This document shows positions 11,510 through 64,000 of a stretch of DNA of 64,000 bases, in pieces; positions within the stretch are counted from its first letter, which is position 1, and the number at the start of each line of letters is the position of its first letter. The position numbers were made by a program, and so were the translations under genes. Location of the stretch: positions 65,072-129,071 of the forward strand of contig CAWALG010000032.1 of NCBI GenBank assembly GCA_963782815.1, in the 5' to 3' direction. Below the pieces are notes generated by a model, which was given only the letters and a program-made list of their open reading frames with translations, did no database searches and was not told the DNA's origin. Origin of the DNA: an uncultured Acidobacteriota bacterium (lineage in GTDB: Bacteria; Acidobacteriota; Thermoanaerobaculia; UBA5066; Gp7-AA6).

Positions 11510-11510
11510 G

Positions 11511-12906: not shown

Positions 12907-12945
12907 CTTGATGCCTCAATGGCAAGTTATACATCGACCGGCTCT

Positions 12946-46071: not shown

Positions 46072-46088
46072 CAAAGGGATCGTAGCAA

Positions 46089-46172
46089 GTGTCATCCTGT
46101 GCGAAGCGGAGGATCTGCCCTTCCAGGATCAAGGGAGCAGATACTTCGGCCCTGCGGGCCTCAGAATGACAG
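46089..46172. repeat. GTCATCC..GAGCGAAGCGAAGGATC family, locus c (inverted pair)
   Basis: gtgtcatcctgtgcgaagcggaggatctgccc ... gggagcagatacttcggccctgcgggcctcagaatgacag. Confidence 0.75.
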
Positions 46173-46192
46173 ACCTTCTCGGGCTCCGGGCT

Positions 46193-47190: not shown

Positions 47191-47801
47191 GCCTGCCTCT
47201 GGAAATCGGCGAGCCGTTCGCGGATCTTCTGGGCGGCCCGGAAGAGATGGGACTTGATCGTGCCGGCGTCCAATCCCGTCAGATCCGCGATCTCCGGGAT
47301 CGAAAGCTCCTCGAAATGTTTCAGGACGAAAACGGATCTCTGCCGCGGCGACAGGGACTCCATCGCGCGGCCCAGCCTCTCGCGGATCTCGCGGGAGAGC
47401 GCCCGGCGCTCGGGGGAGGGGTCCGGATGCGCCGCGATCTCCCGCGGCCCGGTCTCCTCATCCTCGCCGGCGGGAGCCTGGTGGAAATAGAGGACGAGGC
47501 GGCGGCGCTTCAACCGGTCCTTGCACCAGTTGATGCAGATCCGCGTCAGCCATGTCTCGAAGGTCGAGCCCTCGCGGAAATCGGCGAGGCTCTGATACGC
47601 CCGGAGGAAACTCTCCTGCGCCGCGCAATCCGCCTCCCCGGCATCGCGCAGCAGGCGGTAGGCGATGCGGGTGATCCTCTGCTGGTAGCGGCGCACGAAG
47701 TACTCGAAGGAATCCGTCTTCCCGGCGCGGACTTCCTGGATCAGCCGGGCCTCATCGACTCCGGGATCTGTCTGGCGGGGAATCATCGCGAGCGCGGGCA
47801 C
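47187..47801 (-). CDS. RNA polymerase ECF-type sigma factor
   Basis: Region 2 (FEYFVRRYQQRITRIAYRLL, AQESFLRAY) and region 4 (LSIPEIADLTGLDAGTIKSHLFRA). Confidence 0.85.
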   Translation of the reverse strand: MPALAMIPRQTDPGVDEARLIQEVRAGKTDSFEYFVRRYQQRITRIAYRLLRDAGEADCAAQESFLRAYQSLADFREGSTFETWLTRICINWCKDRLKRRRLVLYFHQAPAGEDEETGPREIAAHPDPSPERRALSREIRERLGRAMESLSPRQRSVFVLKHFEELSIPEIADLTGLDAGTIKSHLFRAAQKIRERLADFQRQA

Positions 47802-48532: not shown

Positions 48533-49375
48533 ATGCCCTCGGAACGCGTGATCCTCATCACGGGCTGCTCGAGCGGCATCGGGAGGGCCGCGGCGATCGA
48601 GGCGGCCGGACGCGGCCACCTGGTCTTCGCCACCGCCCGCAATCCCGAGAGCCTGCGGGACCTGGCGAGGGACGGGAAGATCCGGCCTCTCTCCCTGGAT
48701 GTCACGGATACGGCTTCGATCCGCTCCGCCGTCGCCTCCGTCCTGGCCGAGGCGGAGCGAGTGGACGCTCTCGTCAACAATGCCGGCTACGGCCAGTACG
48801 GAGCCGCGGAGGACGTCACCGCCGAGGAATGGAGGCGCCAGTTCGACGTCAATCTCTTCGGCGCGATCGAGGCCGCCCGGGCGGTCCTTCCCGCGATGCG
48901 CGCGGCGCGCGGCGGCACCATCGTCAATGTCTCCTCCGTCGCCGGCAAGATCGCGATCCCTTTCGCCGCCCCCTACTGCGCCTCCAAGCACGCCCTCGAG
49001 GCCTTCTCCGACGCGCTGCGCGTCGAGGTCGCCCCCTTCGGCATCCGCGTCGTGGTCATCGAGGCGGGACCGATCGAGACCCGGTTCGGGGACCGGGCGC
49101 GCGCCGGCGTCGCGCGGATGCTGGTGAGCCCCGGCCCGTATTCCGCGTTCTACCCGAACGCCGAGCGGGCCATGGACACCGACTTCCAGGCGGGGAAGCT
49201 CCCGCCCGAGGCGGTGGCCCGCGTCATCGTCGAGGCAATCGAGTCGGACAATCCCCGGACGCGCTACCGGATCACGCGGATGGCTCGCGCCCTGATCCTC
49301 CTCCGGCGCTTCCTCCCCGACCGTTTCTTCGACCGCCGGATGAAGAAGGCCCTGAAGCTCCCCGACCGGATCTGA
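48533..49375 (+). CDS. SDR family oxidoreductase
   Basis: Intact 280 aa. ITGCSSGIGRAAA, NNAG, YCASKHA. Confidence 0.85.
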   Translation: MPSERVILITGCSSGIGRAAAIEAAGRGHLVFATARNPESLRDLARDGKIRPLSLDVTDTASIRSAVASVLAEAERVDALVNNAGYGQYGAAEDVTAEEWRRQFDVNLFGAIEAARAVLPAMRAARGGTIVNVSSVAGKIAIPFAAPYCASKHALEAFSDALRVEVAPFGIRVVVIEAGPIETRFGDRARAGVARMLVSPGPYSAFYPNAERAMDTDFQAGKLPPEAVARVIVEAIESDNPRTRYRITRMARALILLRRFLPDRFFDRRMKKALKLPDRI

Positions 49376-49602: not shown

Positions 49603-52176
49603 TCATGCGGCACGTCCCAGCTCGCGGTCCCTAGCAGCTGTAGCCCCGCGGCGATTTCGGATTGCCTTGAGCAGCTCGAACCAGGCGGTGCCGAGCGCGG
49701 CGGCGCCGACACAGATCGCGATGTCGGTCACGTGGAGGAAGTCGAAGCGGAACAAGACGCGCAGCGGTGGGACGTACAGCGTCGCTGCGAGGAAGGCGAG
49801 CGCCCCGCCGGTGATCCACCAGAGCGCCGGGTTGCGGGCGCCGTTGCCCGCGACCGAGGTCTTCCAGGAGCGGCTCGTGAAGATCAGCGCCAGATTGGAC
49901 AGGATGAGGATGGTGAAGGTGATGGCACGGGCTTTCAGCTCGCCGCGCCCGCCATAGTGCGCGATCGCGAACGCGCCGAGCAGGATCGCGGTGACGCTGA
50001 GACCGAGGGAGAGGCTGACGGCGATGAGCTTCCTACCGAACAGGCGGGCCGTGACCGCGCGCGGCGGGCGGCGCATCACGTCGGCTTCTTCCGGCTCGGC
50101 CTCGAACACGATCGAACACGCAGGATCGATGATGAGGTGCAGGAAGGCGATGTGGATCGGCATCAGCACCAGCGGCCAGCCGACGAGAATCGGAACGACT
50201 GTCAGGCCAAGGACCGGCAGGTGGACGGCGAGAATGTACGCCAGCGCCTTCTGCAGGTTGTCATAGACGCGGCGTCCGGTGCGCACGGCGAGCTCGAGCG
50301 AGGCGAAGTCGTCGTCGAGGAGCACGAGCTGGGCGGCTTCCCGCGCCACGTCGGTGCCGCGACCGCCCATCGCGATGCCGATGTGCGCGGCCTTGAGCGC
50401 CGGCGCATCGTTCACGCCGTCCCCGGTCATGGCCACGATCTCGCCTGTGGCCTTGAGGGCTTCGACAATGCGGAGCTTCTGCTCGGGCATGATGCGCGCG
50501 AAGACGTTCACCGAGCGAATGCGCCCGCGCAGCGACTCGTCATCCATTTCCGCCAGCTCTGCTCCGGTGATGACCACGGCATGCCTGTCGAGGCCGATCT
50601 GACGCGCGATGCTCTGCGCCGTCGCGGGGTAGTCGCCGCTGATCATGACCACGCGAATCCCGGCCGCGTGACACTCGTCGATCGCCGGGCGCACCGTAGG
50701 CCGCACCGGATCGGAGAGGCCGACGAGCCCGACGAACGCGAGCGAGAGCGCGCCAGGACCGTCGGGCGGGGCCGCGTCCGGGGCGAGCGCGCCTCGGGCA
50801 AGGGCCAGCACCCGAAGGCCGTCGGCCGCCATCAATCGCGCCGTGTCGCCGATCCACTGCGCTTCTGCGTCGCCGAGCCGGCAGAGGAGGGCCACGGCTT
50901 CCGGGGCCCCCTTGCAGGCGACGATGAGCTCCCCGCCTGCGGCGCGCCAGATCTGGATCACGGCCAGCCGCTCGCGCGTGAGCGGATACTCGCGGACCAG
51001 CATCCAATCGGGATGAAGGTGCTCGGTTCCAGCGAGCTGATCCTCGGCCAGGCGCTTGAACGCGACCTCCATCGGATCGAACGAATCCTTGCGGCTGGCC
51101 AGGACAGAATACTCAACGGCCGAGTGGAAGTCCTCCGGCAGCGGCTCTCGCGCGAGGCGTTCCACGTCGAAGGACGCGCCGTCGACGGCGAGGCGGCTCA
51201 CTGTCATTCGGTTTTGCGTGAGCGTGCCGGTCTTGTCGACGCACAGCACCGTCACCGAGCCCAGCGCCTCGACCGCGGGAATGCGGCGCGTAAGCACGCG
51301 CCGCCGGGAGAGCCGCCAGGCGCCAAGCGCGAGGAAGATCGTCACGACGACGGGAAACTCGTTGGGCAGGATCGCCATCGCGAGCGTCAGTCCGGCCAGG
51401 AGGCCGCGAAGCCAGTCGTGGCGCGTGAAACCGTAGACCACGACGACGAGGACGGACAGCGCGCCTGCCACGACCGCCAGCTTCCAAACGAGCCTCTTCG
51501 TCTCGCGCTGGAGCTGCGTCTGTTCGGTCATCGTGACGCCGAGGACGCGGCCGATCGCGCCCATCTCCGTGCGCTCCCCGGTCGCCGTGACCTGCGCGAT
51601 CGCGGCGCCCTGGACCACGAGCGTGCCGGCGTAGACGAACGGGAGACCTTCGCCTCCGGGGCGCCCGGACGCGCTCGCGGGGTCCCCTTCGGTCTTGGCG
51701 ACAGGAACCGACTCGCCCGTGAGCAGCGACTCATCGATGGTGCAATGACTCGTGGAAAGGACGACACCATCGGCCGCGACCCGGTCGCCCTCGCTCAGGA
51801 CGAGGACATCGCCGCGCACGACCTCGCGCCCGGCGATGCGCTGACGCCGGCCGTCGCGGATGACCATGGCGCGCGGGCTCGCCAGATCGCGCAGTGCCTC
51901 GATTGCGCTCTCGGTCTTGCGCTCCTGATACAGCGTGATGCCGACGATGAGGAACACGAACCCGAGCAGCATCAGCGCTTCCTGCCGATCCCCGAGGACG
52001 GAGTAGATGGCCCCGCACCCGATGAGCAGAGCCGTCATCGGCTCACGCACGACGTCGAGAAGGCCGCGCCAGAAGGTCCGGCCGCCGCCCGCCTGCAGCT
52101 CATTGGGGCCGTCGCTCCGCAGCCTCTCGGCGGCCTGGGAGGCCGAGAGGCCTGCGATCGTCTCTTTGTCGATCAT
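49603..52176 (-). CDS. cation-translocating P-type ATPase (Ca/Mg, P2-like)
   Basis: Intact 857 aa. N-terminal cation-ATPase-N (LSASQAAERLRSDGPNEL), CVDKTGTLTQNRM, MTGDGVNDAPALK. Confidence 0.9.
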   Translation of the reverse strand: MIDKETIAGLSASQAAERLRSDGPNELQAGGGRTFWRGLLDVVREPMTALLIGCGAIYSVLGDRQEALMLLGFVFLIVGITLYQERKTESAIEALRDLASPRAMVIRDGRRQRIAGREVVRGDVLVLSEGDRVAADGVVLSTSHCTIDESLLTGESVPVAKTEGDPASASGRPGGEGLPFVYAGTLVVQGAAIAQVTATGERTEMGAIGRVLGVTMTEQTQLQRETKRLVWKLAVVAGALSVLVVVVYGFTRHDWLRGLLAGLTLAMAILPNEFPVVVTIFLALGAWRLSRRRVLTRRIPAVEALGSVTVLCVDKTGTLTQNRMTVSRLAVDGASFDVERLAREPLPEDFHSAVEYSVLASRKDSFDPMEVAFKRLAEDQLAGTEHLHPDWMLVREYPLTRERLAVIQIWRAAGGELIVACKGAPEAVALLCRLGDAEAQWIGDTARLMAADGLRVLALARGALAPDAAPPDGPGALSLAFVGLVGLSDPVRPTVRPAIDECHAAGIRVVMISGDYPATAQSIARQIGLDRHAVVITGAELAEMDDESLRGRIRSVNVFARIMPEQKLRIVEALKATGEIVAMTGDGVNDAPALKAAHIGIAMGGRGTDVAREAAQLVLLDDDFASLELAVRTGRRVYDNLQKALAYILAVHLPVLGLTVVPILVGWPLVLMPIHIAFLHLIIDPACSIVFEAEPEEADVMRRPPRAVTARLFGRKLIAVSLSLGLSVTAILLGAFAIAHYGGRGELKARAITFTILILSNLALIFTSRSWKTSVAGNGARNPALWWITGGALAFLAATLYVPPLRVLFRFDFLHVTDIAICVGAAALGTAWFELLKAIRNRRGATAARDRELGRAA

Positions 52177-52560
52177 GTCTACCAGGGAACCGGGAGACCT
52201 GCGCCATCCCTCGACAACGGAATGAGGCGCCCGGTTCGCGGATGGATCGCGGCGCGCCCAGGGTGCACGCAGGCTATCCCGGGTTTCGTGCTCATTCGCC
52301 CGAAGATTAGCAGCAGGAAAGCGCCTTGCACAGTTCAGTCATCGATAAAGGGCGACCCGTGATCGCGGCGCGCTGCCAGGGTTCGGAATGCATTTGAATC
52401 AGGCGCGCGGGTCTTCGATCGCGGGGAAACTCGCAACGACGGGCGGGCGGCCCGCCAGGCTACGAGCGCCAGGAAGACATCCATTCCGGCGATCGGAAGA
52501 ATCGCCAGGAGCAGGACCGCCGCGTCCCTGCGCTCCCAGGCGCTGCCCCGGAAACGAAGC

Positions 52561-53037
52561 TCAATTCGGCGGGGCCGAGCCCTGACGCGAGGAGCGAAGC
52601 CGGGCCGCCGGCCGCGACGCCGCGACCAGCTTGCGCAGAATGGAAGAATCCGCCGGACGTGTCTCCTGAACCGAGGTCAGAATGTCGCTCAAGGACAGGA
52701 TTCCCACGAGCCTTCCGTCGCCGTCCACGACCGGCAGTCGCCGGATGTGCCCGTCCGCCATGACGCTCAACGCGTAGGTGAGATCGGTTCCCGGACCGCA
52801 GGTGAAGGGGTTCAGGGTCATGACCTCCCGCACGGGGATCGCCGCGGGAAACCGGTTCTTATGGGCCACGGCCAGGCAGACGTCTCGATCCGTGAGGATC
52901 CCGACGGGCCGGCCGGCGTTGTCGAGGACGGGAAGCGCTCCACAACCGTATTCCTGCATGGCCAGCGCGGCCGCCGCCAGGCTCGCGTCCGGCGTGCACG
53001 AATGGGCGGGAGAAGTCATCGCGTCTTGAACTCTCAT
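52561..53037 (-). CDS. CBS-pair domain protein
   Basis: MRVQDAMTSPAHSC.., ALPVLDNAGRPVGILTDRDVCL, IRRLPVVDGDGRLVGILSLSDIL. Start at ATG 53037 within ORF 52561..53325. Confidence 0.8.
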   Translation of the reverse strand: MRVQDAMTSPAHSCTPDASLAAAALAMQEYGCGALPVLDNAGRPVGILTDRDVCLAVAHKNRFPAAIPVREVMTLNPFTCGPGTDLTYALSVMADGHIRRLPVVDGDGRLVGILSLSDILTSVQETRPADSSILRKLVAASRPAARLRSSRQGSAPPN

Positions 53038-53058
53038 TGCGGACCTCCTGAGGCCCCC

Positions 53059-53102
53059 ATCGTCTCCCCCACCGCCCCTCCACGCATGATCCAGACGCAT
53101 CA
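53059..53102 (-). promoter_or_regulatory. operator/promoter site A: TGATGCGTCTGGATCA, 22 nt, GACGAT
   Basis: Palindrome at 53087-53102 and hexamer at 53059-53064. 21 nt (with AGGAGG) to the CBS ATG at 53037. Confidence 0.55.
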
Positions 53103-53136
53103 CAGGCTGCCGTGTCGCGCACGTACATGCAGGGCC

Positions 53137-53208
53137 GTCGAGAGTCAAGGGTCGAGAGTTCAGAGTTGAGCCCCCGGTTCTCTCGACTCTCGACTCTCGA
53201 CTCTCGAC
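53137..53208. repeat. heptad-repeat hairpin L5: 5 degenerate GTCGAGA units, short loop, 4 x TCTCGAC
   Basis: gtcgaga gtcaagg gtcgaga gttcaga gttgagc ccccggttc tctcgac x4, downstream of the acyl-CoA synthetase stop. Confidence 0.85.
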
Positions 53209-53252
53209 CTTCCCGTGAACGCAAATGGTTCCCGATTTAACACGATGCTGAA

Positions 53253-55970
53253 TCAGTAGGCGATGCGGCGAGACGGAGTGAGAGACGGCGGGCGTCCCAC
53301 GCGGATCCGGGCGTCCACGACGCACACGCCGCTCGTCAGGACCTTGACCGGGTTCAGATCCATCTCGCGCACCTCGGGGCAGTTCTCGATGAGGGCGGAG
53401 ACGCGCAGCAACATCTCCTTGAGAGCGGCCTCGTCTCCGCGCGGAGCTCCGCGGTAGCCGCGCAGGAGGGCGGTGCCCTTCACCTCATCGAGCATGGCGG
53501 CGACGTCCCTGTCGGTGAGCGGGTGGAGACGGAAGGCCACGTCGGCGACGAGCTCGACGAGAGTCCCGCCGCTGCCGTAGACGACGAGCGGTCCGAACGT
53601 CGGGTCCTGCGTGACGCCGACGAGGACTTCGACGCCGCCGGGCACCATGGCCTGGACGAGGAAATCGGTGAGGTCCGTGCCGAGCCGCTGCTTCAACTCG
53701 CGGCAGGCCGAGAGGACCGCGTCCTCGTCGGCCAGGTTCAGACGCACGCCGTCGACCTCCGTCTTGTGCAGGATCGCGGGGCCGACCGCTTTCACCGCGA
53801 CCGGAAACCCGAGCTCTTTCGCCGCGGCGGCCGCGGTGGTCTCGTCGCGGGCGAGGCGCATCGCCGCGACGGGAATCCCGAACGCGGTCAGGAGCGCTTC
53901 CGCCTCGAGCGGTCCGACCCATCCGCCGCTCCCCGCGAGCACCTTCGCGATGACCGCGCGGGCCCGGTCCACGGCGAGGCCCTCGAGAGCCGGCACCTTC
54001 CCCGGCGGCTGCCGGCGCCACTCCCCGTAGTCGGCGGCGCGGCCAAGCGCGATCGCGGCGGATTCGGGGAACGGGTAACAGGGGATCGCCGCCGACAGGA
54101 CCTGGGGCGTTCCCTTGGCGCTCATGAACGTCGCGAGGACGGGCTTTCGCGCCCCTTTCGTGCCTTCGACGATGGATGTGGCGACGGCCTCGGCCTGGCT
54201 CGCGATCGGCGGGATGAAGATCACCAGGACGCTGTCGAAATTCTCCTCGTCCAGCAGGATCCTCAACGCTTTCCGGTAGTGCTCCCCCGTCGCCGAGGCG
54301 ATCATATCCACCGGGTTGCCCACGCTCGCCGCCGCGCGGAAGAAACGGCGCGCAGCTTCGCGGCCGCGGCGGCGGACAGGAGCGGCAGCTCCAGCCCCTG
54401 CGCCTCGCAGGCATCGGCCGCGAGGATCCCCGGGCCGCCGGCGTTGGTAAGGATGCCGACGCGCCGGCCGAGGGGGACGGGCTGGTGCGCGAGAAGCGTG
54501 GCCACGTCGAAGAGCTCTTCGAGGGTCCCGGTCCGGATGACGCCCGCCTGCCGGAAAAGAGCGTCCACGACAGGATCGGACTCGGCAAGAGCGCCCGTAT
54601 GGGACGTGGCGGCGCGCGAGCCCGCGCGCGAGCGGCCGGCCTTGACCGCGATGATCGGCTTCTTGCGCGCGACGCGGCGCGCGATGCGGGAGAAGCGGAC
54701 GGGATTGCCGAAGCTCTCCAGGTACAGCAGGATCACGTCCGTGCGCGGGTCCTCGCTCCAGTACTGGATCAGGTCATTGCCGGAGACGTCCGCCTTGTTG
54801 CCGACGGAGACGAACGTCGAGATCCCGAGATTCAGCTTCGAGGCGTAGTCGAGCAGCGCCAGCCCGAGCGCTCCGCTCTGCGAGGAGAGGGCCACGCGGC
54901 CCTTCCGGCGGGTGCACGGGGCCGAACTGGGCGTCGAGGCGCACCTTCGGATCCGTGTTGATGAGCCCCATGCTGTTGGGCCCCACCATCCGGATCCCGG
55001 CGGCCCGGATCTTCTCGACGAGCACCGCCTCCCGCTGCCGGCCCTCCGTGCCCGTTTCCGAGAATCCCGCCGTGATCATGATGATCGCCTTGACGCCCTT
55101 GGCGACACACTCGTCCACGGCGGCTTCGACCCCCGCGGCGGGGATCACGATGACGGCGAGGTCCACGGCCCCCGGGTAATCCTCCAGGCGCGGATAGCAC
55201 CGGACACCCAGGATCTCCCCGGCGTTCGGATTGATCGGGACGAGCGTGCCCTGGAAGCCGTTGGAGACGAGGTTGAAGAAGAGCTCGGCGCCGATCTTCC
55301 CGCGTTCGCGGCTCGCCCCGAGCACGGCGACGACCTTCGGTTCGAAGAGGAGCTTCATCGAAGCCGCGGCCGCGCGCTCCGAGCGTTCGGCGTAGCTCTC
55401 CTCGAACCGGGGAGTCGGCGTCAGGGAGAAGACCATCTTCCCGACGCCCCCCTCGAATGTCTGCTTCAACTCGAACCCGCAGTTGCGGAAGACGCCGATC
55501 ATCCGCCGGTTCTGGGCGAGGACTTCCGCCTCGAAGATCTGGATCCCCCGGGCCCGCGCGATCTCGGCCAGCCTTTCCAGAAGGCGCGTTCCGATGCCCT
55601 GTCCCTGGAGCGCATCCTCGACCGTGAAGGCGGCCTCCGCGCGCTCGGGGCGCTTGTCGTTGCGGAAGAAGTGGGCGATGGCGACGATCCGGCCGGCGGT
55701 CTCTCCCACCAGAGCGAACGTGTTCTGGTAATCCACCTGGCAGACGCTCTCCGCCTTCTTGACGTTCAACTGAGGGACCGAGAAGAAGCGGAAGTAGAGG
55801 CTGTCGGGCGACAGCCGCTTGTAGAAGGCGAGGAGAGCCGCGGCGTCCTCCGGCCGGATCGGGCGAAGGCGCAGGGTGGACCCGGACTTCAGGACGACGT
55901 CGGATTCCTCCTGGGCGGGATAGCCGGCCGGAGGCTCCGCGGTGGTGCCGCCTGTGATTCTGGAAGACAT
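53253..55970 (-). CDS. GNAT N-acetyltransferase fused to ADP-forming acyl-CoA synthetase (two frame changes)
   Basis: N-terminal GNAT (ALQGQGIGTRLL), CoA-binding (VAVLGASRERGKIG), ligase-CoA (SQSGALGLALLD), ATP-grasp C-terminus. ORFs 54774..56993, 54302..54895 and 53253..54323 join near 54895 and 54320. Confidence 0.8.
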
Positions 55971-56103
55971 GAGAACCTCCCGCGGACAGGTTCTTGCAAT
56001 TTTGCGCCCGGGTGTTGATACGAACGGATCATACGGCACGCGAGCGTGCGCTCGTCCGCCTCGCCGGACCCCTCCGGCGACCCCTCGCCGGAACCAAGTC
56101 GTT

Positions 56104-56147
56104 TGATGCAGCTTGATCTGGTGATTCCCCCCGTGTCGGACGATGCT
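56104..56147 (+). promoter_or_regulatory. operator/promoter site B: TGATGCAGCTTGATCT, 22 nt, GATGCT
   Basis: Palindrome at 56104-56119 and hexamer at 56142-56147. 21 nt (with GGGGAGG) to the CBS ATG at 56169. Confidence 0.55.
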
Positions 56148-56168
56148 TTCTCCGGGGAGGAAGAACGC

Positions 56169-56627
56169 ATGAAGGTCGAAGCGCTCATGAACCCGCGGGT
56201 CAAATCCGCCGGGACGGACGCCTCCGTCGCCGACGTCGTCCTGATCATGGAGAAGTACGACTGCGGAACCGTCCCGATCCTGAACAAGGCCAACAAGCTC
56301 GTGGGAATCGTCACGGACCGGGACATCTGCCTCGGCCTCGGGTTCCGCCCGATTCCGGCGGCGGGGATACCCATCACCGACATCATGTCGAAGAAGGTCT
56401 ACGCCTGCTCTCCGGAAGAGGACGTCTCGGCCGCTCTTCAAACGATGCGCCAGCGGAAAGTCCGCCGGCTGCCCGTCATCGACTCCGACGGGCTGCTCGT
56501 CGGCATCCTCTCGATGGACGACGTGGTTCTCCGCGCGGAGGAGGACTTCGGAGAGACGGTCAGGACTCTGAAGGCCATCTACAGGCGGCCGGTCTCCAGG
56601 AAGGAGCCCGCAAGGCTCGAGGCCTGA
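56169..56627 (+). CDS. CBS-pair domain protein
   Basis: MKVEALMNPRVKSAG.., LVGIVTDRDICL, VRRLPVIDSDGLLVGILSMDDVVL, TLKAIYRRP. Close paralogue of 63084..63578. Confidence 0.85.
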   Translation: MKVEALMNPRVKSAGTDASVADVVLIMEKYDCGTVPILNKANKLVGIVTDRDICLGLGFRPIPAAGIPITDIMSKKVYACSPEEDVSAALQTMRQRKVRRLPVIDSDGLLVGILSMDDVVLRAEEDFGETVRTLKAIYRRPVSRKEPARLEA

Positions 56628-56682
56628 TCGACAACTCTCGAAGGTCCTCCGCCGCGGGCTCCCTGCGGAGGTAAGCCCCGCG

Positions 56683-57600
56683 ATGGCGGACGGCAGGCAT
56701 TCGATCGCCGCCGGGATCTGGCGGCTCGCCGATCCAAAGATCTCCCTCGCGTCCATGGCGTCGATGTTCCTCGGCGCCTGCGCCGCGGCGCGCGACGGAC
56801 CGCTCGACCCGGGATGGCTCGCGGTGACCGTCGCCGGAATCTTCGCGATCGAAGTCGCCAAGAATGCCTCGGGCGAGATCTTCGACTTCGATTCCGGCAC
56901 GGACCGCTCGGTCGCGCCCGAAGACCGGAGCCCCTTCTCCGGCGGAAAGCGCGTCCTGGTGGACGGGCTGCTGACACGGCGGGAGACGGCCACGGCAGCC
57001 GCCGTCTGCTATGCCGCCGGCGCCGCCTGCGGCCTCGCGATCGTGCTGCTCCGGGAGCCGAAGGTGTTCTGGCCGGGAGCCGCCGGGATGGCGTGCGCCT
57101 ACTTCTACCAGGCGCCGCCGCTCTCCCTCGCCTATCGCGGGCTGGGGGAAGCGGCCGTCGCGATCTGCTACGGTCCGCTGATCTGCTCCGGGACCTACCT
57201 CGTGCAGCGCGGCTCTCTGCCCGCGCCGATCCTCGCGCTCTCGGCGCCTCTGGGAATCCTGATCGCCGGCTTCCTCTGGATCAACGAGTTTCCGGACTTC
57301 CGCGCGGACCGCGCAGCCGGGAAACGGACTCTCGTCGTCCGGCTCGGACGCCGCGCCGCGAGCTTCGTCTTCATCGGCCTCATCGCGACCGCGGCTCTTC
57401 TGCTCCTCGCCGAGCCGTTGCTCGGCCTGCCCGAAGGTGTGTGGCTCGGCGCGCTCGGGCTCATTCCAGCGGCGCTGGCCGCCCGGACCGTCGCTCGAAA
57501 CTTCGACCGAACGGAGTTGATCGTCCCGGCACAGCGCCAGGCGCTCCTCGCGTTCCTCCTGCTGGCGATCGGTTCGGGACTCGGTTCCCTTCTTCTCTAG
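56683..57600 (+). CDS. UbiA family prenyltransferase (MenA-like)
   Basis: Intact 305 aa with 8-9 TM helices. NEFPDFRADRAAGKRT Asp-rich motif. Confidence 0.75.
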   Translation: MADGRHSIAAGIWRLADPKISLASMASMFLGACAAARDGPLDPGWLAVTVAGIFAIEVAKNASGEIFDFDSGTDRSVAPEDRSPFSGGKRVLVDGLLTRRETATAAAVCYAAGAACGLAIVLLREPKVFWPGAAGMACAYFYQAPPLSLAYRGLGEAAVAICYGPLICSGTYLVQRGSLPAPILALSAPLGILIAGFLWINEFPDFRADRAAGKRTLVVRLGRRAASFVFIGLIATAALLLLAEPLLGLPEGVWLGALGLIPAALAARTVARNFDRTELIVPAQRQALLAFLLLAIGSGLGSLLL

Positions 57601-57602
57601 AG

Positions 57603-57643
57603 AGCCCGGCCGAGGCGGCTGTCACTCAGGCTCGGCCGGCGCT
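57603..57643. terminator. stem-loop between convergent genes
   Basis: ccggccgag (57606-57614) pairs with ctcggccgg (57631-57639). The right arm overlaps the 3' end of the USP gene. No U-tract. Confidence 0.35.
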
Positions 57644-58138
57644 CTTGCGGCGCGGCGTCCGTCTCTTCGTGGCCATGCGCTTCTGCCCTTGCGCGGGACC
57701 AACCGTCATCACCGGGCAGGGCGCGGCGGCGATGACCTTCTGCGCCACGCTGCCGAGGAGGAAGCGGAAGAAACCGCTGCGGCCGTGCGTGCCGATGACG
57801 ATCAGGTCGGCGTGAATCTTCGCGGCCGCCTCGGTGATCCCGGAGTGCGCAATCCCGCGCAGGACCAGACCCGTGGCCTTCACCCCCTGCTTTCGGGCGG
57901 CTTCCACGAGAGGCGCGAGGCTCTTTTCGGCTCCCGCCCGCAGGGCCTCCTCGATCTCGTCGTAGAGCCCCGGAGAAGCGATGTAGCTCCCGAAGGAAGC
58001 GGCGCCCGGAGGCTCGTAGACGTGCACGAGGGTGAGCTCCGCGCCTTCCGAGCCGGCGACCCTGACCGCCTGGGCCACCGCGGGCGCCGAGGCCGGAGAG
58101 AAATCCGTCGCGGCGAGGATACGGCTCAGAATTCCCAT
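57626..58138 (-). CDS. universal stress protein
   Basis: MGILSRILAATDFSPAS.., DLIVIGTHGRSGFFRFLLGSVAQKV. Start at ATG 58138 within ORF 57626..58267. Confidence 0.8.
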   Translation of the reverse strand: MGILSRILAATDFSPASAPAVAQAVRVAGSEGAELTLVHVYEPPGAASFGSYIASPGLYDEIEEALRAGAEKSLAPLVEAARKQGVKATGLVLRGIAHSGITEAAAKIHADLIVIGTHGRSGFFRFLLGSVAQKVIAAAPCPVMTVGPAQGQKRMATKRRTPRRKSAGRA

Positions 58139-58230
58139 GGCTGGCTCTCCTTTCTGCTCGGGCGCCCTGCCGGCGGGAAGGACACGATGATAGCGATGAA
58201 GAGTGTCGCGCTCGCGGGAAGAACTCGTCC

Positions 58231-58274
58231 TGATGCGAACAAATCTATCGGCGCGGCCTCCTGTCAACTAGACT
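58231..58274 (+). promoter_or_regulatory. operator/promoter site C: TGATGCGAACAAATCT, 22 nt, TAGACT, 6 nt, GTG
   Basis: Palindrome at 58231-58246 and TAGACT at 58269-58274. The GTG start of the tandem USP is at 58281. Confidence 0.6.
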
Positions 58275-58280
58275 TTCGCC

Positions 58281-59225
58281 GTGAGGATCCTGGCCGCGAC
58301 AGACGGCTCCAGGACATCCGGAGCCGCCGTTCGGTTTGCCGCCGTGGTGGCCGCGAAGTGCAGCAGGGGCAGCCTCACCGTGATCACCGTCGGGCGACTC
58401 CCATCGCGGAGGTGGCTCGCGCGTCCTCGGCCCGGCCGGTTGGAATCCCCGATCGAGGAAAAGGAGCTCGCCTGGTCCGAGCGAGTCCTGGAGAGGGGCC
58501 GACGCGACGCGCAGCGGCTCGGGGCGCGTGTTCGTACCGCGTATGCGGGGACGAACCGGCTCGAGCCGATCGCCGAGACGATCGCCCGCGCCGGCGTCCG
58601 CGACGGGGCGGACCTCGTCGTCGTCGGCAGCGGCGGAGCGAAGGAGCTCCTTCGCTACACTCTTGGCAGTATCACGCACCGGCTCGTGCATGTGTCCCGG
58701 CTCCCGGTCGCGGTCGTGCGCGCCGACGCGAGGACCGCCCGGAGCCCGATCCGGATCCTCGCCTCGACCAACGGATCGAAGCCGTCCCGGGCGGCGGTGG
58801 CCTTCGCCGCGCGCCTGGCCGCCGCGATCCCCCGAGCCCGGCTCGTCGTCCTGACGGTCTCGACTCTCGCGGCCGACATCGCGCTCACGGGGGCCACGTT
58901 CGTGCATGCGTTGGGAGTGCTGCCGGATCTCGAGCGCGCGGAGCGGGAGGCCGCGGACAGGATTCTCCGGGCGGCGGCGAAGGAAACGCGCAAGCTCGGC
59001 AAACGCGTGCGGTTCGTCTACCGGAAACCGGGCCGCCCGACGCGGGCGGCGCAGACCATCGTCCGGGAAGCCGCGCGCCAGGCATCGGACCTGATCGTGC
59101 TCGGCAACACAGGAAGGAGCGCGGTCAACGACCTCGTCCTCGGCAGCGTGGCTCAGCGCGTCCTCGATCTGTCCCACCGGCCCGTCGTTCTCGTGCGGGC
59201 TTCTTCCTCGAGAGGAAGACGATGA
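58281..59225 (+). CDS. tandem (two-domain) universal stress protein
   Basis: Intact 314 aa with two Usp halves (RILAATDGS.. and IRILASTNGS..), each ending G..G......LGS(I/V). Confidence 0.8.
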   Translation: MRILAATDGSRTSGAAVRFAAVVAAKCSRGSLTVITVGRLPSRRWLARPRPGRLESPIEEKELAWSERVLERGRRDAQRLGARVRTAYAGTNRLEPIAETIARAGVRDGADLVVVGSGGAKELLRYTLGSITHRLVHVSRLPVAVVRADARTARSPIRILASTNGSKPSRAAVAFAARLAAAIPRARLVVLTVSTLAADIALTGATFVHALGVLPDLERAEREAADRILRAAAKETRKLGKRVRFVYRKPGRPTRAAQTIVREAARQASDLIVLGNTGRSAVNDLVLGSVAQRVLDLSHRPVVLVRASSSRGRR

Positions 59226-60262
59226 TCCTGTTCCGCGACCGCCAGGATGCCGGGCGGGCGCTCGCGCGGCGGCTCATGTTCTACGCCGGCCGGTCCGACG
59301 TCACGGTCCTCGCTCTCCCCCGCGGCGGCGTGCCGGTCGCTCTCCAGGTCGCTCAGGCCCTGAACGCTCCTCTGGACGTCTTCCTCGTGCGCAAGCTCGG
59401 CCTTCCCGGCCACAAGGAACTGGCCATGGGAGCCATCGCCTCGGGAGGCGTCCGTGTCCTCGATCCCGTCATCCTGCGCGAGTACCATGTGTCCAAGGGG
59501 GAAGTCGTCCGCGTCACGGCGGTCGAGCTGAAGGAGTTGAAGCGCCGCGAGACCGCCTATCGCGCCGGGCGGCCTCCGCTCGACGTGAGAGGCCGCACCG
59601 TCATCCTGGTGGACGACGGGCTGGCCACCGGGTCCTCGATGCGTGCCGCGGTCGAGGCCCTCGCGCCGCTGTCGCCGGCTCGCGTCGTCGTCGCCGTCCC
59701 GGTCGCCCCTCACTCGACGGTCCTCCTGCTCGAGAGGCTGACCAACGAGGTCGTGTGCCTGGCGACGCCGGAGCCCTTTCTCGCCGTCGGAATGTTCTAT
59801 GAGGAATTCGAGCAGATCAGTGACGAGCAGGTCCGTGATCTTCTGGCTTGCGCGGACCCGCCGCCGGAAGCCGACAAGGAGAACTCCATGCGCAATCGCC
59901 AGGTCCCGCGAACGGAGTGGTACCGGTTCTTCCGAGATTTCTCACGGCGCCACGAGGACTGGCTCGTCACGGTTCGGGTCATGAACCCCGACCTCGGGTC
60001 GCAGGTCGAATCGAGCGATCTCCCGCTCGAGGGGATCGTCGCCGATCATGCCGGCCGCGGTCCGATCGCGATTCACGTGGGCCGGTCTCCGCAACACCAC
60101 GTCGAACACGAGGTGCCCGATCCGCGGCAGGTCTGGGTCGAGCTCTCCCCGGAGGGCGCGGAAGAAGCGGTCGAGATCGAGTCAGAGGACGGGACGAAGA
60201 CCATCGTACAGTTCCACGCGGCCTCCCTCCCGCGGGAAGTGGACGGCATTCTTCGCCCGTAG
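59222..60262 (+). CDS. phosphoribosyltransferase domain protein continuous in frame with a DUF5335-like C-terminal module
   Basis: PRPP loop VILVDDGLATGSS. From the internal ATG at 59888: MRNRQVPRTEWYRFFRDFSRRHEDWLVTVRV.. (family name from memory). No stop between the two parts. ATG overlaps the USP stop (ATGA). Confidence 0.65.
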   Translation: MILFRDRQDAGRALARRLMFYAGRSDVTVLALPRGGVPVALQVAQALNAPLDVFLVRKLGLPGHKELAMGAIASGGVRVLDPVILREYHVSKGEVVRVTAVELKELKRRETAYRAGRPPLDVRGRTVILVDDGLATGSSMRAAVEALAPLSPARVVVAVPVAPHSTVLLLERLTNEVVCLATPEPFLAVGMFYEEFEQISDEQVRDLLACADPPPEADKENSMRNRQVPRTEWYRFFRDFSRRHEDWLVTVRVMNPDLGSQVESSDLPLEGIVADHAGRGPIAIHVGRSPQHHVEHEVPDPRQVWVELSPEGAEEAVEIESEDGTKTIVQFHAASLPREVDGILRP

Positions 60263-60624
60263 CGGCGGCCCGGGACCTCGTGCTCCAACGCCGGGAAGAC
60301 GCCGGGCGCTCTCAACCGTTCGGATCTTCAGGAGGCTCCGGTCCGCTCCCTCCGGTGACGGGAGCAGAAGACCCCGTCGTGGCGCCGGAACCGGCACTGC
60401 TGAGGATGTCCGTTGGCGGCCAGGAAGACGACGGCGATGCAGCGCTCGTTGGGCGGCAGGAAGATCGAGCGTCCTCGCCGAGTCTGGATTGCGCTCCGGA
60501 TCCCCTGCTGCGCCACCGCGGCTCCACGATGGATGCCGTCCCGGGTCGATGCCCGAACGCTCTCGGCTCCCATCTTCCGCCCCCCAACCAATCCTTCCGT
60601 TCGGGACTCCGCTCTCCCTCTTCG

Positions 60625-61266
60625 TCAGTCCTCGACGAAGGGATTGTGAATGATGATCCGCTGGCCTCCCTGCTTCTGGACGATCTCCCGGAGAGCGGCG
60701 GCCAATTCCCGGCGCAAAGGAGCAGAGCCCTCCTCCTCGGCACAGAGAACCATGTCGGTCAGCGACACGACACCCTCGAGAAGCCCCTGCGCGCCGATGA
60801 CAGGGAGGTGCCGGATCCGGCGGGATCGCATGGCCCTCAGGGCATTCAGGACGTCCTCTCCGGTCTCACACGTCGCGGGCGGGCCGCTCATCGCGTCGCG
60901 GACGAACATGTCGCTCAACCGGCGGTGACTGGTCGATCCGAGCAGGCAGATGTCGCCGTCCGTCACGACGCCGATCGGACGCCCGCTGCCGTCCACGACC
61001 GGAAGGAAACGGCAGTCCGCCTCGAACATCGCGATCGCCGCCGCGGCCAGCGTGTCTTCCGGACGACAGGACCGGACGTTTCGCGTCATGATGTCACGCA
61101 CGCGACAGGAGGGAGAGTCGCCGGGCTGGCGGCGCGCATTCCCTTCAGCGGCCTGCGGTTCCTGACCCGGCCCGGAGGGGAGCCGTTCCCCCGCCGCCTC
61201 CTGCCCTACCCCGAGAGAACGGCAAGGATCATTGATGCTCATGCCGGTTCTCATCGAACCCTCCAC
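60625..61266 (-). CDS. CBS-pair domain protein (start uncertain)
   Basis: VRDIMTRNVRSC.., FLPVVDGSGRPIGVVTDGDICL, IRHLPVIGAQGLLEGVVSLTDMVL. Confidence 0.75.
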   Translation of the reverse strand: MEGSMRTGMSINDPCRSLGVGQEAAGERLPSGPGQEPQAAEGNARRQPGDSPSCRVRDIMTRNVRSCRPEDTLAAAAIAMFEADCRFLPVVDGSGRPIGVVTDGDICLLGSTSHRRLSDMFVRDAMSGPPATCETGEDVLNALRAMRSRRIRHLPVIGAQGLLEGVVSLTDMVLCAEEEGSAPLRRELAAALREIVQKQGGQRIIIHNPFVED

Positions 61267-61281
61267 TTTCCGCGGCCCGGA

Positions 61282-61957
61282 TCAGCTCCAGGGATCGACG
61301 GACAAGTGGTCCTTCACCTCGTGAACTCCGGGAGCGTGACTGACTGTTCCCAGGACCGAGTTCTTCTCCGGCCAGGTCCGGACCTTGCCTTCGAGCGTAA
61401 CGGTATCCCCGTCGATGTTGACGCTGATCCTCTCCGCTTCCCGCTCCGCCTCGAGCTCGAGCGCGTCTTCGATGGATCGGCGGAGGACTTGCGGATCGAC
61501 GGTGGTCGCGCGAGACCTCGAGGAGGTTGTGAACGCTCTGGACGCCCGCGAGGACCCGCACGACCCGCTCCGCGTCCTCCTTCTCGCGCGGCGTCGAAAC
61601 CTCTCCCTCGAGCGTGACCCGGCCCTCGGAGACCGCCGAGCGGATCTTCCTGTCGGGCAGGAACGGGTCCCATTCGAGCGTGAGCCGGACGGTCCTCGCG
61701 ATGTCGCCGTCCGTTCTCTGCGGAACCCCCGGCGAATGGACCTGGATTTCGTCGGCCACTCTGAGGACGCCGATCACCCGGAGCGCCGCCCCCCGGGCGG
61801 CGTGTTTCCTCGACTCGCCGTCCACCGTTCCCGTCAGGGTCACGATGCCGCCACTCACCTCGATGCCGATCTCGGCCCCGTCCACCCGGGAGTCCCACTG
61901 GAGCTCGCGCAGGACGTCCTGCTGAATCTCCTGGTCGGTCCTGGCCGCAACAGGCAT
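61282..61957 (-). CDS. BON domain (OsmY-like) protein, three BON repeats (one frame change)
   Basis: GIVTLTGTV, GRVTLEGEV. After a shift near 61500: GDTVTLEGKV..HEVKDHLSVDPWS*. Confidence 0.7.
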
Positions 61958-62060
61958 GGCAGCCTCCTCCTGCCAGGCTCGCTCGCGCCCCGCTGCTCTG
62001 GCCTGCCGGGCGCGACGCTCGCCGGCTCGGACATGATGAGAGAAAACGGGACTCTCCGCA

Positions 62061-62104
62061 TGATTCGCCTACATCATTCCGGGCGCCGCGGGACGGGATA
62101 GGAT
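62061..62104 (+). promoter_or_regulatory. operator/promoter site D: TGATTCGCCTACATCA, 22 nt, TAGGAT, 6 nt, GTG
   Basis: Palindrome at 62061-62076 and TAGGAT at 62099-62104. The GTG start of the USP is at 62111. Confidence 0.6.
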
Positions 62105-62110
62105 CGGCGC

Positions 62111-62548
62111 GTGGCGCGAGGCCGGATCCGGATCCTCGTCGGCGTGGACTTCTCCCGCGAGTCGCTGGGCGCCCTGCGCGCCGCTCGGGCGCTCGCGGCG
62201 AAGGTCGGGGGCCATATCACCCTGACTCACGTCCGCCCGACCTCCAACACGCGGGCGGCCGTCGTCGAGGATCGCGGAGACCTCCTGCGCCGGCCGGCGG
62301 CCGCGCTCTCCGCCGCGATGGCGGACCACTACGAGCGCCGTCTCGCGAGGCTGCGGCTCCGAGGCTCGAACGAAGACGTGCTCCTGCTGCGCGGCGCCGC
62401 GGCTCCGGCTCTCTGCCGCCGGGCGGGCCGCGGCTACGACCTGCTCGTCCTCGGGGAGCGCGGGCGAGGCCGTGTCGCGGCGTTCCTGCTCGGCAGCACC
62501 GTCCAGGAAACGATCGCCCGTTCGCCGATTCCGGTCATGGTGGCCTGA
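62111..62548 (+). CDS. universal stress protein
   Basis: Intact 145 aa. RILVGVDFSRES.., DLLVLGERGRGRVAAFLLGSTVQE. Confidence 0.8.
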   Translation: MARGRIRILVGVDFSRESLGALRAARALAAKVGGHITLTHVRPTSNTRAAVVEDRGDLLRRPAAALSAAMADHYERRLARLRLRGSNEDVLLLRGAAAPALCRRAGRGYDLLVLGERGRGRVAAFLLGSTVQETIARSPIPVMVA

Positions 62549-62662
62549 CGAGCCGGGCCTTCGCCGGTGCGTTTGGCTCATGACCCCGGAGCGGTTCCGG
62601 TTCATCATTCCGGAAGGCGCCGACCGCCTCTGAGCGGACCGGCGACGCCGAAGGAGATCTCG

Positions 62663-63100
62663 ATGCTGCAGATCCACCTGCTCGACATGGCGCCGTCGCC
62701 GGCGGTCGAAGCCCGGATCCGGCGATGGGGCGACCGGCTGTCACGCTACTCCGAGGAGATCCAGAACTGCCAGGTGTGGGTCGAGTCCCCGCACGGTCAC
62801 CACCGCAAGGGAGACCTGTACGGCGTTCGCATCCGGCTGACGGTGCCCGGGGAGGAGCTTTCCGTGGATCTCCAGCCGAGCGAGGAGGACGTGCACCTCT
62901 CCATCCGGAAGGCGTTCGACGCCGCGCGGCGCAAGCTCCAGGACTACGAGCGCCGGCGTCGCGGCCAGGTCAAGGCCCACCCTCGCGCGCCCGGCGACGT
63001 CTCCCGCAGGAGGCAGGTCCCCGCGCGGCGGGACCGCGAGGACCGCGGTCTGAAGTTCTCAGGCGGAGGAGGAGCGGCCGGCTCTACGGGTGAGCGATGA
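62663..63100 (+). CDS. HPF/RaiA-like ribosome-associated protein (tentative)
   Basis: MLQIHLLDMAPSPAVEARIRRWGDRLSRY..VWVESPH..YGVRIRLTVPGEELSV..IRKAFDAARRKLQDY. Low-complexity basic tail, so the 3' end is uncertain. Confidence 0.5.
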   Translation: MLQIHLLDMAPSPAVEARIRRWGDRLSRYSEEIQNCQVWVESPHGHHRKGDLYGVRIRLTVPGEELSVDLQPSEEDVHLSIRKAFDAARRKLQDYERRRRGQVKAHPRAPGDVSRRRQVPARRDREDRGLKFSGGGGAAGSTGER

Positions 63101-63578
63101 GCTCCTTCCTGGCGTCGGGGCGCTCGTAGATCGCCTTCAGGGTGTCCACGGTCGGCCCGTAACCAAGCTCGCCGTTCTCCTCGATCCTCTCCACTTTCCC
63201 GTTCTCGGCGTGAAGAACGACATCGTCCATGGAGAGAATCCCGACGAGCCGCCCATCGCCGTCGAGGACGGGCAGGCGCCGCACCTTCTTGTTCTTCATC
63301 GTTTCGAGGGCGTCGAGGACATCCTCCTCGGGACTGCAGGCGTACACACCCCTGGACATCACGTCCGTCACGGCAATCCTGGCCGCGGGAAGCCGGCGCG
63401 GTCCCAGCGCAAGACAGATGTCCCGGTCGGTGATCATGCCGACGACTCTGTTCTCCGGATCGACGACGGGAACCGCGCCGCATTCGTTCGCCTCCATGAT
63501 CACGACGACTTGCGCCACGGAGGCGTCCGTGCCGGCGGACTTCACATCGGAGATCATCAGCGACTGGACGTTCATCAC
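63084..63578 (-). CDS. CBS-pair domain protein
   Basis: Intact 164 aa. VVGMITDRDICL, VRRLPVLDGDGRLVGILSMDDVVL, TLKAIYERP. Confidence 0.85.
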   Translation of the reverse strand: MMNVQSLMISDVKSAGTDASVAQVVVIMEANECGAVPVVDPENRVVGMITDRDICLALGPRRLPAARIAVTDVMSRGVYACSPEEDVLDALETMKNKKVRRLPVLDGDGRLVGILSMDDVVLHAENGKVERIEENGELGYGPTVDTLKAIYERPDARKELIAHP

Positions 63579-63595
63579 CCACCTCCCCGGGCCGC

Positions 63596-63639
63596 ATCGT
63601 GTTTGGGTCCTGCGCGGTTCGCCAGATTCAGGCGCATCA
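63596..63639 (-). promoter_or_regulatory. operator/promoter site E: TGATGCGCCTGAATCT, 22 nt, CACGAT
   Basis: Palindrome at 63624-63639 and hexamer at 63596-63601. 17 nt (with GGGGAGG) to the CBS GTG at 63578. Confidence 0.55.
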
Positions 63640-63733
63640 ATCGGCGGCGTCGGGTCGGGAGCTGATGAAAACGGCCCATGCGAAACCCGGCCGGAGCGAG
63701 CAGGATATGAGGGACGGCGGCGCGGGAGGAGCC

Positions 63734-64000
63734 ATGACGAAATCAGACTCGGGCCCCGTCGTTGCGACCGAGTACTGGCACCGGCTCGAGGACGGCCGGA
63801 TTCAGTGCGATGTGTGTCCGCGGTTCTGCGCGCTGCGGGAAGGTCAGCGCGGCCTCTGTTTCGTGCGCGCCCGGCAGGACGACCGGATCGTCCTGACGAC
63901 CTACGGGAGATCGAGCGGGTTCTGCGTCGATCCGATCGAGAAGAAGCCGCTCCACCACTTCCTCCCCGGGACAGCGGTCCTCTCCTTCGGCACGGAAGGC
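63734..64000 (+). CDS. radical SAM activase-like protein, N-terminal fragment (AmmeMemoRadiSam-type, tentative)
   Basis: Own translation: MTKSDSGPVVATEYWHRLEDGRIQCDVCPRFCALREGQRGLCFVRARQDDRIVLTTYGRSSGFCVDPIEKKPLHHFLPG. The gene continues past the window edge. Confidence 0.55.
   Translation, partial: MTKSDSGPVVATEYWHRLEDGRIQCDVCPRFCALREGQRGLCFVRARQDDRIVLTTYGRSSGFCVDPIEKKPLHHFLPGTAVLSFGTEG

Follow-up and report, generated by a model that had tools for sequence, protein, structure and literature searches.

The boxes of NtcA (GTAN8TAC) are centred near -41.5 (PMC3898017), and Arg186 of NtcA – the equivalent of Arg180 in CRP – reads an invariant G:C pair 7 bp from the dyad (PMC11850224). The FNR, FixK and DNR regulons, governed by TTGAT-N4-ATCAA, include uspA, Hsp20, CBS proteins, P-type ATPases and NnrS (PMC2908626). 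Here we analyse a stretch of 64 kb (69% G+C; hereafter the window) from a metagenome-assembled genome (MAG) of Thermoanaerobaculia (Acidobacteriota), in which a 16-bp palindrome, TGATnCRnnYGnATCW, recurs at a fixed distance from -10-like hexamers in front of stress-related genes. We term this palindrome the N8 box. It is, we consider, probably the site of one dimeric factor, a class II-like activator of stress promoters with a weak -10 element, whose gene would lie outside the window.

Two further systems bear comparison. The DosR (DevR) regulon comprises several USPs, a CBS-pair protein (Hrp1-like), an HPF-like protein, PfkB, a P-type ATPase and a phosphoribosyltransferase, and its proximal activator site overlaps the -35 region. 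The sites of TnrA and GlnR, of the MerR family, have the form TGTNA-N7-TNACA; these palindromes measure 16-17 bp, with about 12 bp from one half-site centre to the other, and it is from upstream positions that TnrA activates. For the Acidobacteriota, to our knowledge, almost no transcription factor motifs or regulons are known, and for Thermoanaerobaculia none; a literature search for the N8 motif returned no paper mentioning it in the library covered.

Recurrence and phasing of the N8 box

A preliminary description of this stretch had reported five 16-mers, each followed by a hexamer with A at position 2 and T at position 6 (A2/T6). The coordinates and strands of all five, and of their hexamers, proved correct, and matches to the pattern drawn from them, TGAT[GT]C-N6-ATC[TA], are confined to those five places in the 64 kb. 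The count itself was too low, a sixth site (box F, 56016-56031) having been overlooked, and the palindrome had been drawn too short: its outer TGAT/ATCW arms are real, but the full motif extends inward to TGATnCRnnYGnATCW. The looser pattern TGAT-N8-ATCW gives nine strand-matches at six places, all of them intergenic and all within 53087-63639; in 100 dinucleotide-preserving shuffles the mean is 0.98 +/- 1.23 matches and the maximum stays below nine. When the hexamer is included (TGAT-N8-ATCW plus N22-nAnnnT, one mismatch allowed) there are seven matches against 0.21 expected. The six boxes fall within 11 kb (the 53-64 kb island), while the remaining 53 kb holds none. With a matrix built solely from related genomes, the scores of the six window sites run from 17.9 to 28.9 bits, against a best of 13.9 bits in 20 shuffles; the matrix recovers exactly these six, with nothing else clearly above the shuffle range. 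The occurrence of the motif is confirmed, and is stronger than first described; the claim that its recurrence is unlikely by chance stands, given that the shuffle counts never reach the observed count. Two weaker matrix matches were set aside. One (18596-18611, minus strand; TGATGAGAATGCACCT), with TACCTT after 22 nt and located 5' of a D-3-phosphoglycerate dehydrogenase (serA-like) gene, scores 12.5 bits, which is in the shuffle range, and is probably not a site; the other, at 52386, scores 10.9 bits, also inside that range, and was not counted.

Box A lies at 53087-53102 on the minus strand (TGATGCGTCTGGATCA; 27.5 bits with the relatives-only matrix, as for the scores that follow), with the -10-like hexamer GACGAT at 53059-53064 and then 21 nt carrying GGAGG before an ATG at 53037. 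Box F, also on the minus strand (TGATCCGTTCGTATCA; 17.9 bits), has GAACCT at 55988-55993 and 17 nt with GGGAGG before the ATG at 55970. Box B (56104-56119, plus; TGATGCAGCTTGATCT; 27.8 bits) is followed by GATGCT at 56142-56147 and 21 nt with GGAGG to the ATG at 56169, and box E (63624-63639, minus; TGATGCGCCTGAATCT; 26.5 bits) by CACGAT at 63596-63601 and 20 nt with GGAGG to the ATG at 63575. From box C (58231-58246, plus; TGATGCGAACAAATCT; 21.7 bits) the hexamer TAGACT (58269-58274) stands 6 nt from a GTG at 58281. Box D (62061-62076) is bidirectional: read on the plus strand (TGATTCGCCTACATCA; 23.0 bits) it leads to TAGGAT (62099-62104), 6 nt from a GTG at 62111, and read on the minus strand (TGATGTAGGCGAATCA; 28.9 bits) it has CATCAT (62033-62038) exactly 22 nt on, toward a BON-CBS operon, the BON ATG at 61957 lying behind a leader of about 75 nt.

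The preliminary description had placed an A2/T6 hexamer exactly 22 nt after each box, which is true for all seven productive readings. Phasing is equally evident in the wider sample, which consists of 68 oriented, non-identical sites from the window and its relatives, scored for spacers of 5-44 nt: the hexamer stands at a spacer of 22 in 37 sites and of 23 in a further 10, any other spacing accounting for between none and six. The logo of these 47 productive sites displays the full palindrome TGATnCRnnYGnATCW, then K-G-C, and a -10 element of the form n-A-(t)-n-(C/A)-T. Symmetry runs through the whole box (T1/A16, G2/C15, A3/T14, T4/A13, C6/G11, R7/Y10), and the inner pairs, C6/G11 and R7/Y10, are what is expected of a symmetric dimer. 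Distances from hexamer to start codon fall into two classes, 6 nt (C and D plus) and 17-21 nt with GGAGG (A, B, E and F). In the first class the GTG would be the very start of a transcript initiated about 7 nt past the hexamer, as in a leaderless mRNA.

The relatives with which we compared the window are Thermoanaerobaculia MAGs, sequences from which carry locus labels of the form L001; in several of them the orthologue of the CBS-pair gene behind box B (CBS_B) is 80-95% identical, and in the distant ones CBS identity is 44-56%. Comparison of the orthologous intergenic regions, which the preliminary description had called for, places the boxes at the same positions before the same gene families down to that 44-56%. 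Between CBS_B and the divergent gene for a Pat-like acetyltransferase, an alignment of six genomes shows box B, the hexamer and the Shine-Dalgarno sequence to be almost invariant, whereas the 22-nt spacer varies by substitution without indels and the interval from F to B contains large indels. Orthologues of box F are present in L001, L003, L004 and L026, and box B is near-invariant across the six orthologous regions. Box C has orthologues (TGATGCGAACGGATCT) in L002, L004, L005 and L033, and box E in L002, L006, L007 and L033; box D is kept in L001, L002, L004, L005, L028 and L029, with CATCAT or CATCCT at the minus-strand hexamer position in relatives.

These observations bear directly on the possibility that the similarity is not regulatory at all – that it arose by chance, is left over from the duplication of promoter-gene cassettes, or belongs to a small repeat or mobile element. 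Two of the CBS-pair genes in the island, CBS_B and CBS_E, are paralogous (61% identity), so some promoter similarity could be inherited. But the boxes front unrelated families (CBS, USP, GNAT/Pat, BON), the spacers between box and hexamer are mutually dissimilar, and the boxes persist at orthologous sites amid diverging bases, in numbers that shuffled sequence never attains. Nor do 4-bp arms around an 8-nt loop form a stable hairpin, and no Rfam family was matched in the window. We regard this explanation as exceedingly improbable and, in effect, as already refuted.

A critical issue is how the box relates to the promoter. From its centre to the first base of the A2/T6 hexamer downstream is 30 bp, which gives -42.5 if the hexamer is taken as -12 to -7 and would place the box at -50 to -35; by the definition we used, the centre of a class II activator site precedes the transcription start by 41.5 +/- 1 bp. 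No match to a canonical sigma-70 promoter (TTGACA-N17-TATAAT) occurs in 52400-64000 and there is no usable -35, the logo retaining merely a weak W-K-G remnant at that position. A symmetric site, strictly phased to a weak -10, lacking a -35 and co-conserved with these elements, carries the signature of a class II activator that binds as a symmetric dimer. The bound factor, lying at -50 to -35, would most likely recruit RNA polymerase in the class II manner. One dimeric regulator in class II geometry is what the preliminary description had proposed, and spacing, palindrome, missing -35 and conservation all speak for it; its placement of that regulator in the NtcA-type CRP/FNR family is not established: the invariant G:C pair 7 bp from the dyad speaks for it, the absence of the core common to FNR and CRP sites against it.

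Several points weigh against such an activator. The placement at -42.5 rests wholly on the assignment of the hexamer, and because orthologous sites share ancestry there are fewer independent observations than the site counts suggest. The core TGA-N6-TCA, common to the sites of CRP (TGTGA-N6-TCACA) and FNR (TTGAT-N4-ATCAA), is replaced by TGA-N10-TCA. A stiff A-T step occupies the position at which CRP and NtcA kink DNA, which they do at TG and TA steps. A search for a CRP/FNR gene in the window and 25 island loci returned solely a cNMP-binding histidine kinase (12915-11514, minus). Lastly, the final base of the box and the logo positions after it (+17 to +19, K-G-C) are similar to the TTG of a -35 element.

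That last resemblance makes it conceivable that the N8 box is instead a repressor operator, which covers -50 to -35, occludes a weak -35 and leaves the genes to be derepressed under stress; palindromic operators of the TetR, MarR, PadR and Rrf2 types are often of similar size. Repressor operators are not normally held at a fixed distance from the -10, yet 47 of the 68 oriented sites stand at 22 or 23 nt. Furthermore, poor hexamers such as GACGAT, CACGAT and GATGCT, in an island without a canonical promoter, are typical of activator-dependent promoters. A repressor, the chief mechanistic alternative, is in our estimation unlikely, if worth keeping in mind, and we continue with the activator as the preferred reading.

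The island and its predicted transcription units

The genes next to boxes A, B and E had been described as encoding CBS-pair proteins and those next to C and D as encoding USPs; Pfam confirms both. Boxes are present in every divergent or leading intergenic region able to carry a promoter for the island's units, and from the six boxes we predict seven transcription units, with starts near 53052(-), 55981(-), 56154(+), 58281(+), 62026(-), 62111(+) and 63589(-). Two of the seven, those from C and D plus, would have the leaderless geometry.

The first unit would comprise CBS_A (52561-53037, minus; Pfam CBS, 3.6e-33) and possibly extend into the gene for a P-type cation ATPase downstream on the same strand (49603-52176, minus; Pfam ATPase domains). 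The second, from box F, would consist of the gene for the Pat-like protein acetyltransferase / ADP-forming acyl-CoA synthetase (53253-55970, minus; GNAT, CoA-binding and ATP-grasp domains). Box B would drive CBS_B (56169-56627, plus; Pfam) together with the UbiA-family prenyltransferase gene that follows it (56683-57600, plus; Pfam), and box C a tandem-USP gene (58281-59225, plus; Pfam) and the succeeding reading frame for a phosphoribosyltransferase with DUF5335 (59222-60262, plus; Pfam). From box D, the minus-strand unit would begin with a BON-domain gene (61229-61957; Pfam), continue through a CBS-pair gene (60625-61242; Pfam) and end with a small open reading frame (ORF) rich in Cys and Arg (60328-60573), which relatives keep in that place; the plus-strand unit would contain a USP gene (62111-62548; Pfam) and the gene for an HPF/YfiA-like ribosome hibernation factor (62663-63100; Pfam, NCBIfam). 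The seventh unit would be CBS_E (63084-63575, minus; Pfam CBS, 2e-30). Also in the island are a USP gene at 57626-58138 (minus; Pfam/NCBIfam) and, from 63734 onward, an AmmeMemoRadiSam radical SAM gene (plus; Pfam/NCBIfam).

Several features of these genes deserve mention. The Pat-like gene is split into three frames by two frameshifts, and the C-terminal part of the BON ORF is a low-complexity, Arg/Gly-rich sequence; the orthologues of both in L026 are intact (942 and 225 aa, respectively). Both defects are likely to be due to homopolymer errors of a long-read assembly, genuine pseudogenes being possible. The small ORF (60328-60573 here; 15105-15317 in L026; 16995-17231 in L028) encodes 70-81 aa, is Arg-rich, always follows the BON-CBS pair, and carries the motif ERC[LI]AVV[FY]LAA-G-P-QC-F-R-G-[YF]C-RH-RER, with three Cys and a His; it is without a Pfam or NCBIfam match.

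Between the Pat-like stop and box A, at 53128-53208, lies a long imperfect hairpin of heptamers in which four copies of CTCTCGA (53180-53208) face GTCGAGAG-type repeats (-62.7 kcal/mol, z = -3.7, no U-tract). Comparable 'AGTCTCA' heptamer arrays form a palindrome 5' of a CRP/FNR gene in L053. The hairpin may be a terminator, an insulator or a member of a repeat-element family.

Adjoining the island is a cluster (45523-47801, minus) with an extracytoplasmic function (ECF) sigma factor gene (47190-47801) and a gene for a CpxP/Spy-like LTXXQ 'Metal_resist' protein (46196-47080). The cluster is syntenic in L026, with a putative anti-sigma ORF between the two, and has no N8 box. The sigma factor was considered as an explanation for the conserved elements and rejected, these being 32 nt apart and unfit for an ECF -35/-10.

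Candidates for the factor

The preliminary description had noted that the window holds no gene for a CRP/FNR regulator, and searches of the window and 25 island loci with phmmer (E. coli CRP and FNR as queries), and with Pfam on approximately 70 ORFs, likewise found none. The signalling module to which the histidine kinase belongs (9855-12915, minus) consists of that cNMP-binding-domain kinase, which is frameshifted, followed by a receiver protein fused or adjacent to glutaredoxin and pyridine-nucleotide-disulphide oxidoreductase domains; it is without a DNA-binding output domain. Promoter sites of the forms GTGA-N6-TCAC and TTGA-N6-TCAA are lacking from the island. Across the whole window we found no DosR, CRP or FNR box apart from one false positive: a perfect 14-bp palindrome at 48548-48561 (GTGATGAGGATCAC), CRP/FNR-box-like and kept in relatives, which is not a regulatory site because it is coding sequence, for the N-terminal VILITG Rossmann motif of a short-chain dehydrogenase.

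The logo nonetheless sets the invariant G2/C15 7 bp from the dyad, precisely as in NtcA and CRP, and the box – two-fold symmetric and 16 bp long – falls within the 14-22 bp of homodimer sites in the CRP/FNR family. Our leading guess for the factor is a CRP/NtcA-like protein with an Arg that contacts the G 7 bp from the dyad.

In relatives, just one member of the family was found to be encoded on island-bearing contigs: a CRP/FNR protein with the recognition helix TTIETAIRxMSRWQKE. Its gene and the island are separated by 40-70 kb in four MAGs, while a fifth has the gene elsewhere; these distances would put it about 45-50 kb past the right end of the window. In L037 it is located 1.5-8 kb from N8-preceded genes, and in L039, L041, L042 and L052 the order is the transcription factor gene, Dps, an N8-like box and cstA. 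But the protein has Ile at the position of CRP Arg180/NtcA Arg186, so the G 7 bp from the dyad would be unreadable in the manner of NtcA or CRP, and in its Glu/Arg pattern it resembles FNR. Around its gene stands a different box, aTGA(C/T)-N4-(G/A)TCAt followed after 22-23 nt by TAnnnT – the N4 box, a classical FNR-type class II arrangement present in Thermoanaerobaculia, Vicinamibacteria and other phyla – and the gene's own promoter, which lacks an N8 box, has TATAAT. A rigid CRP-type dimer would, moreover, be unable to serve half-site spacings that differ by 4 bp. That this protein reads the N8 box is very unlikely: traced from L037 to 78 loci it tracks the N4 box and lacks the G-reading Arg, and was for these reasons assigned to N4 and rejected for N8.

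The N4 box itself was seen at L038 7214, L040 9290, L044 10479, L045 7955 and L046 9384, and at about 100 sites in L053-L110, and the helix TTIETAIRxMSRWQKE is invariant in Thermoanaerobaculia, Vicinamibacteria, Binatia and Fimbriimonadaceae. Box and protein together apparently constitute a separate, widespread regulon. An FNR-like paralogue with a Cys cluster (L051) was likewise discarded, its orthologues occurring only in other Thermoanaerobaculia and in none of the island-bearing MAGs. When every ORF in 220 loci (about 2 Mb) was searched with a hidden Markov model built from the CRP/FNR orthologues, no further paralogue was detected beside N8 sites.

A different kind of candidate is found among the targets. 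The sole DNA-binding protein that we encountered there is a BldC-like, MerR-type winged helix-turn-helix protein of 73-82 aa, and the factor could be this protein, autoregulated and possibly reliant on an adjacent hemerythrin-like protein for dimerisation and for sensing O2, NO or iron in trans. Its promoter has the best-conserved of all N8 boxes (tTGATTCGTTTGCATCAt), a 22/23-nt spacer, a -10 and a leaderless ATG, and it is this N8 box on its own promoter – implying autoregulation – that makes the protein a candidate. The BldC-like gene is present in all five island-bearing MAGs sampled, at 40-50 kb from the island in the three that have both on one contig, and its pairing with the hemerythrin-like gene is conserved in more than 20 loci. 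The arrangement of N8 box and BldC-like gene recurs in about 27 of some 50 loci across Thermoanaerobaculia, a count biased by the fact that these loci were fetched on account of the BldC idea. A representative operon (L116 4001-8083; also L117-L120, L124, L127 and L147) consists of the N8 box, the leaderless BldC-like gene, the hemerythrin-like gene, a class V aminotransferase gene (NifS/IscS-like) and genes for pyruvate/2-oxoacid:ferredoxin oxidoreductase; it is divergent from a gene for an unannotated 400-aa Cys-motif protein (MLSPVELEIEL...) that carries an N4 box.

BldC, however, binds head-to-tail on 9-bp direct repeats of the form AATTxxxx(C), mainly through minor-groove shape readout (PMC5859096). 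The N8 logo has no AATT periodicity and is an inverted repeat with strict TGAT/ATCA. In addition, paralogous BldC-like genes carry the FNR-like N4 box and adjoin the CRP/FNR gene; BldC-like genes thus have the look of targets of such regulators. We judge it improbable that the BldC-like protein is the factor. The specific form of the idea in which the N8 box is read not by a CRP/FNR protein but by a 73-aa BldC-like symmetric dimer with its hemerythrin-like partner – a 'split MerR' – is similarly doubtful. Were it true, a dormancy-like regulon across Thermoanaerobaculia would have this pair as its autoregulated master activator, and the BldC family would gain a new mode of DNA binding and activation.

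The proposed regulon beside known systems

In relatives the N8 box also stands 5' of cstA, RtcB/archease, HSP20, MtrC-like multihaem cytochrome genes and PfkB-containing operons, and before the operon for the BldC-like protein, hemerythrin, NifS and pyruvate:ferredoxin oxidoreductase. Over about 20 Thermoanaerobaculia MAGs these targets form a coherent set concerned with stress and anaerobiosis. Genes for MtrC-like decahaem cytochromes adjoin N8 boxes or N8-type BldC-like genes in L037 (at 3607) and in L141, L143, L144, L146, L153, L154, L159, L163 and L171 (at about 5.2-7.6 kb), which suggests that extracellular electron transfer belongs to the N8 regulon.

Judged from sequence, then, the N8 boxes appear to mark a previously undescribed Thermoanaerobaculia regulon with a class II-like promoter architecture. 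Taken together, the targets in the window and in relatives resemble those of a response to oxygen limitation, starvation or dormancy, and they point to a shortage of oxygen or energy as the condition that the regulon answers. The box supplies a testable definition of which genes are switched together in abundant, mostly uncultured bacteria of soil and sediment; the set so defined – USPs, CBS pairs, BON, HPF, the acetyltransferase, CstA, cytochromes and pyruvate:ferredoxin oxidoreductase – would make a plausible programme for surviving a shortage of oxygen or energy. It is directly usable in the annotation of MAGs and the interpretation of metatranscriptomes. The presence in one genome of N4 and N8 boxes, which have like tetramers but unlike spacing, moreover offers a case for divergence in regulator specificity.

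How does this system compare with those already described? In gene content the island is like the mycobacterial DosR regulon, with a counterpart to PfkB among the targets in relatives. The motif is unrelated: no DosR-type Dev box (GGGAC-N4-GTCCC) occurs in the window, and a NarL-family response regulator was not found near the island. The sites of TnrA and GlnR are alike in palindrome size but differ in sequence. As for the BldC family, N8 targets include a BldC-like gene more consistently than any other, whereas BldC itself acts on direct repeats (PMC5859096).

The regulons of FNR, FixK and DNR (Anr) share with the N8 regulon the TGAT/ATCA tetramers, the kinds of target and the class II placement that the N8 box would have. 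They differ in that the N8 half-sites are 4 bp wider apart, TGA-N10-TCA as against TGA-N6-TCA; and because an FNR-like N4 box coexists in the same genomes beside its own CRP/FNR gene, N8 is to be seen as a separate system.

The likeness to the NtcA box is one of architecture: triplets 8 bp apart, an invariant G:C pair 7 bp from the dyad, a box in place of the -35 and, at a set distance of about 22 nt, a -10 whose sole constant bases are A2 and T6 (PMC3898017, PMC11850224). The NtcA consensus GTA-N8-TAC is not matched, the N8 sites reading GAT-N8-ATC with no exception. They differ further in the conserved inner C6-R7/Y10-G11 and in a predicted centre about 1 bp further upstream (-42.5). The host is an acidobacterium, the targets concern stress and anaerobiosis and not nitrogen, and no NtcA-like protein was found in the window and island loci. 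In geometry the NtcA box is the closest known system; in biology the closest are the FNR, FixK and DNR regulons.

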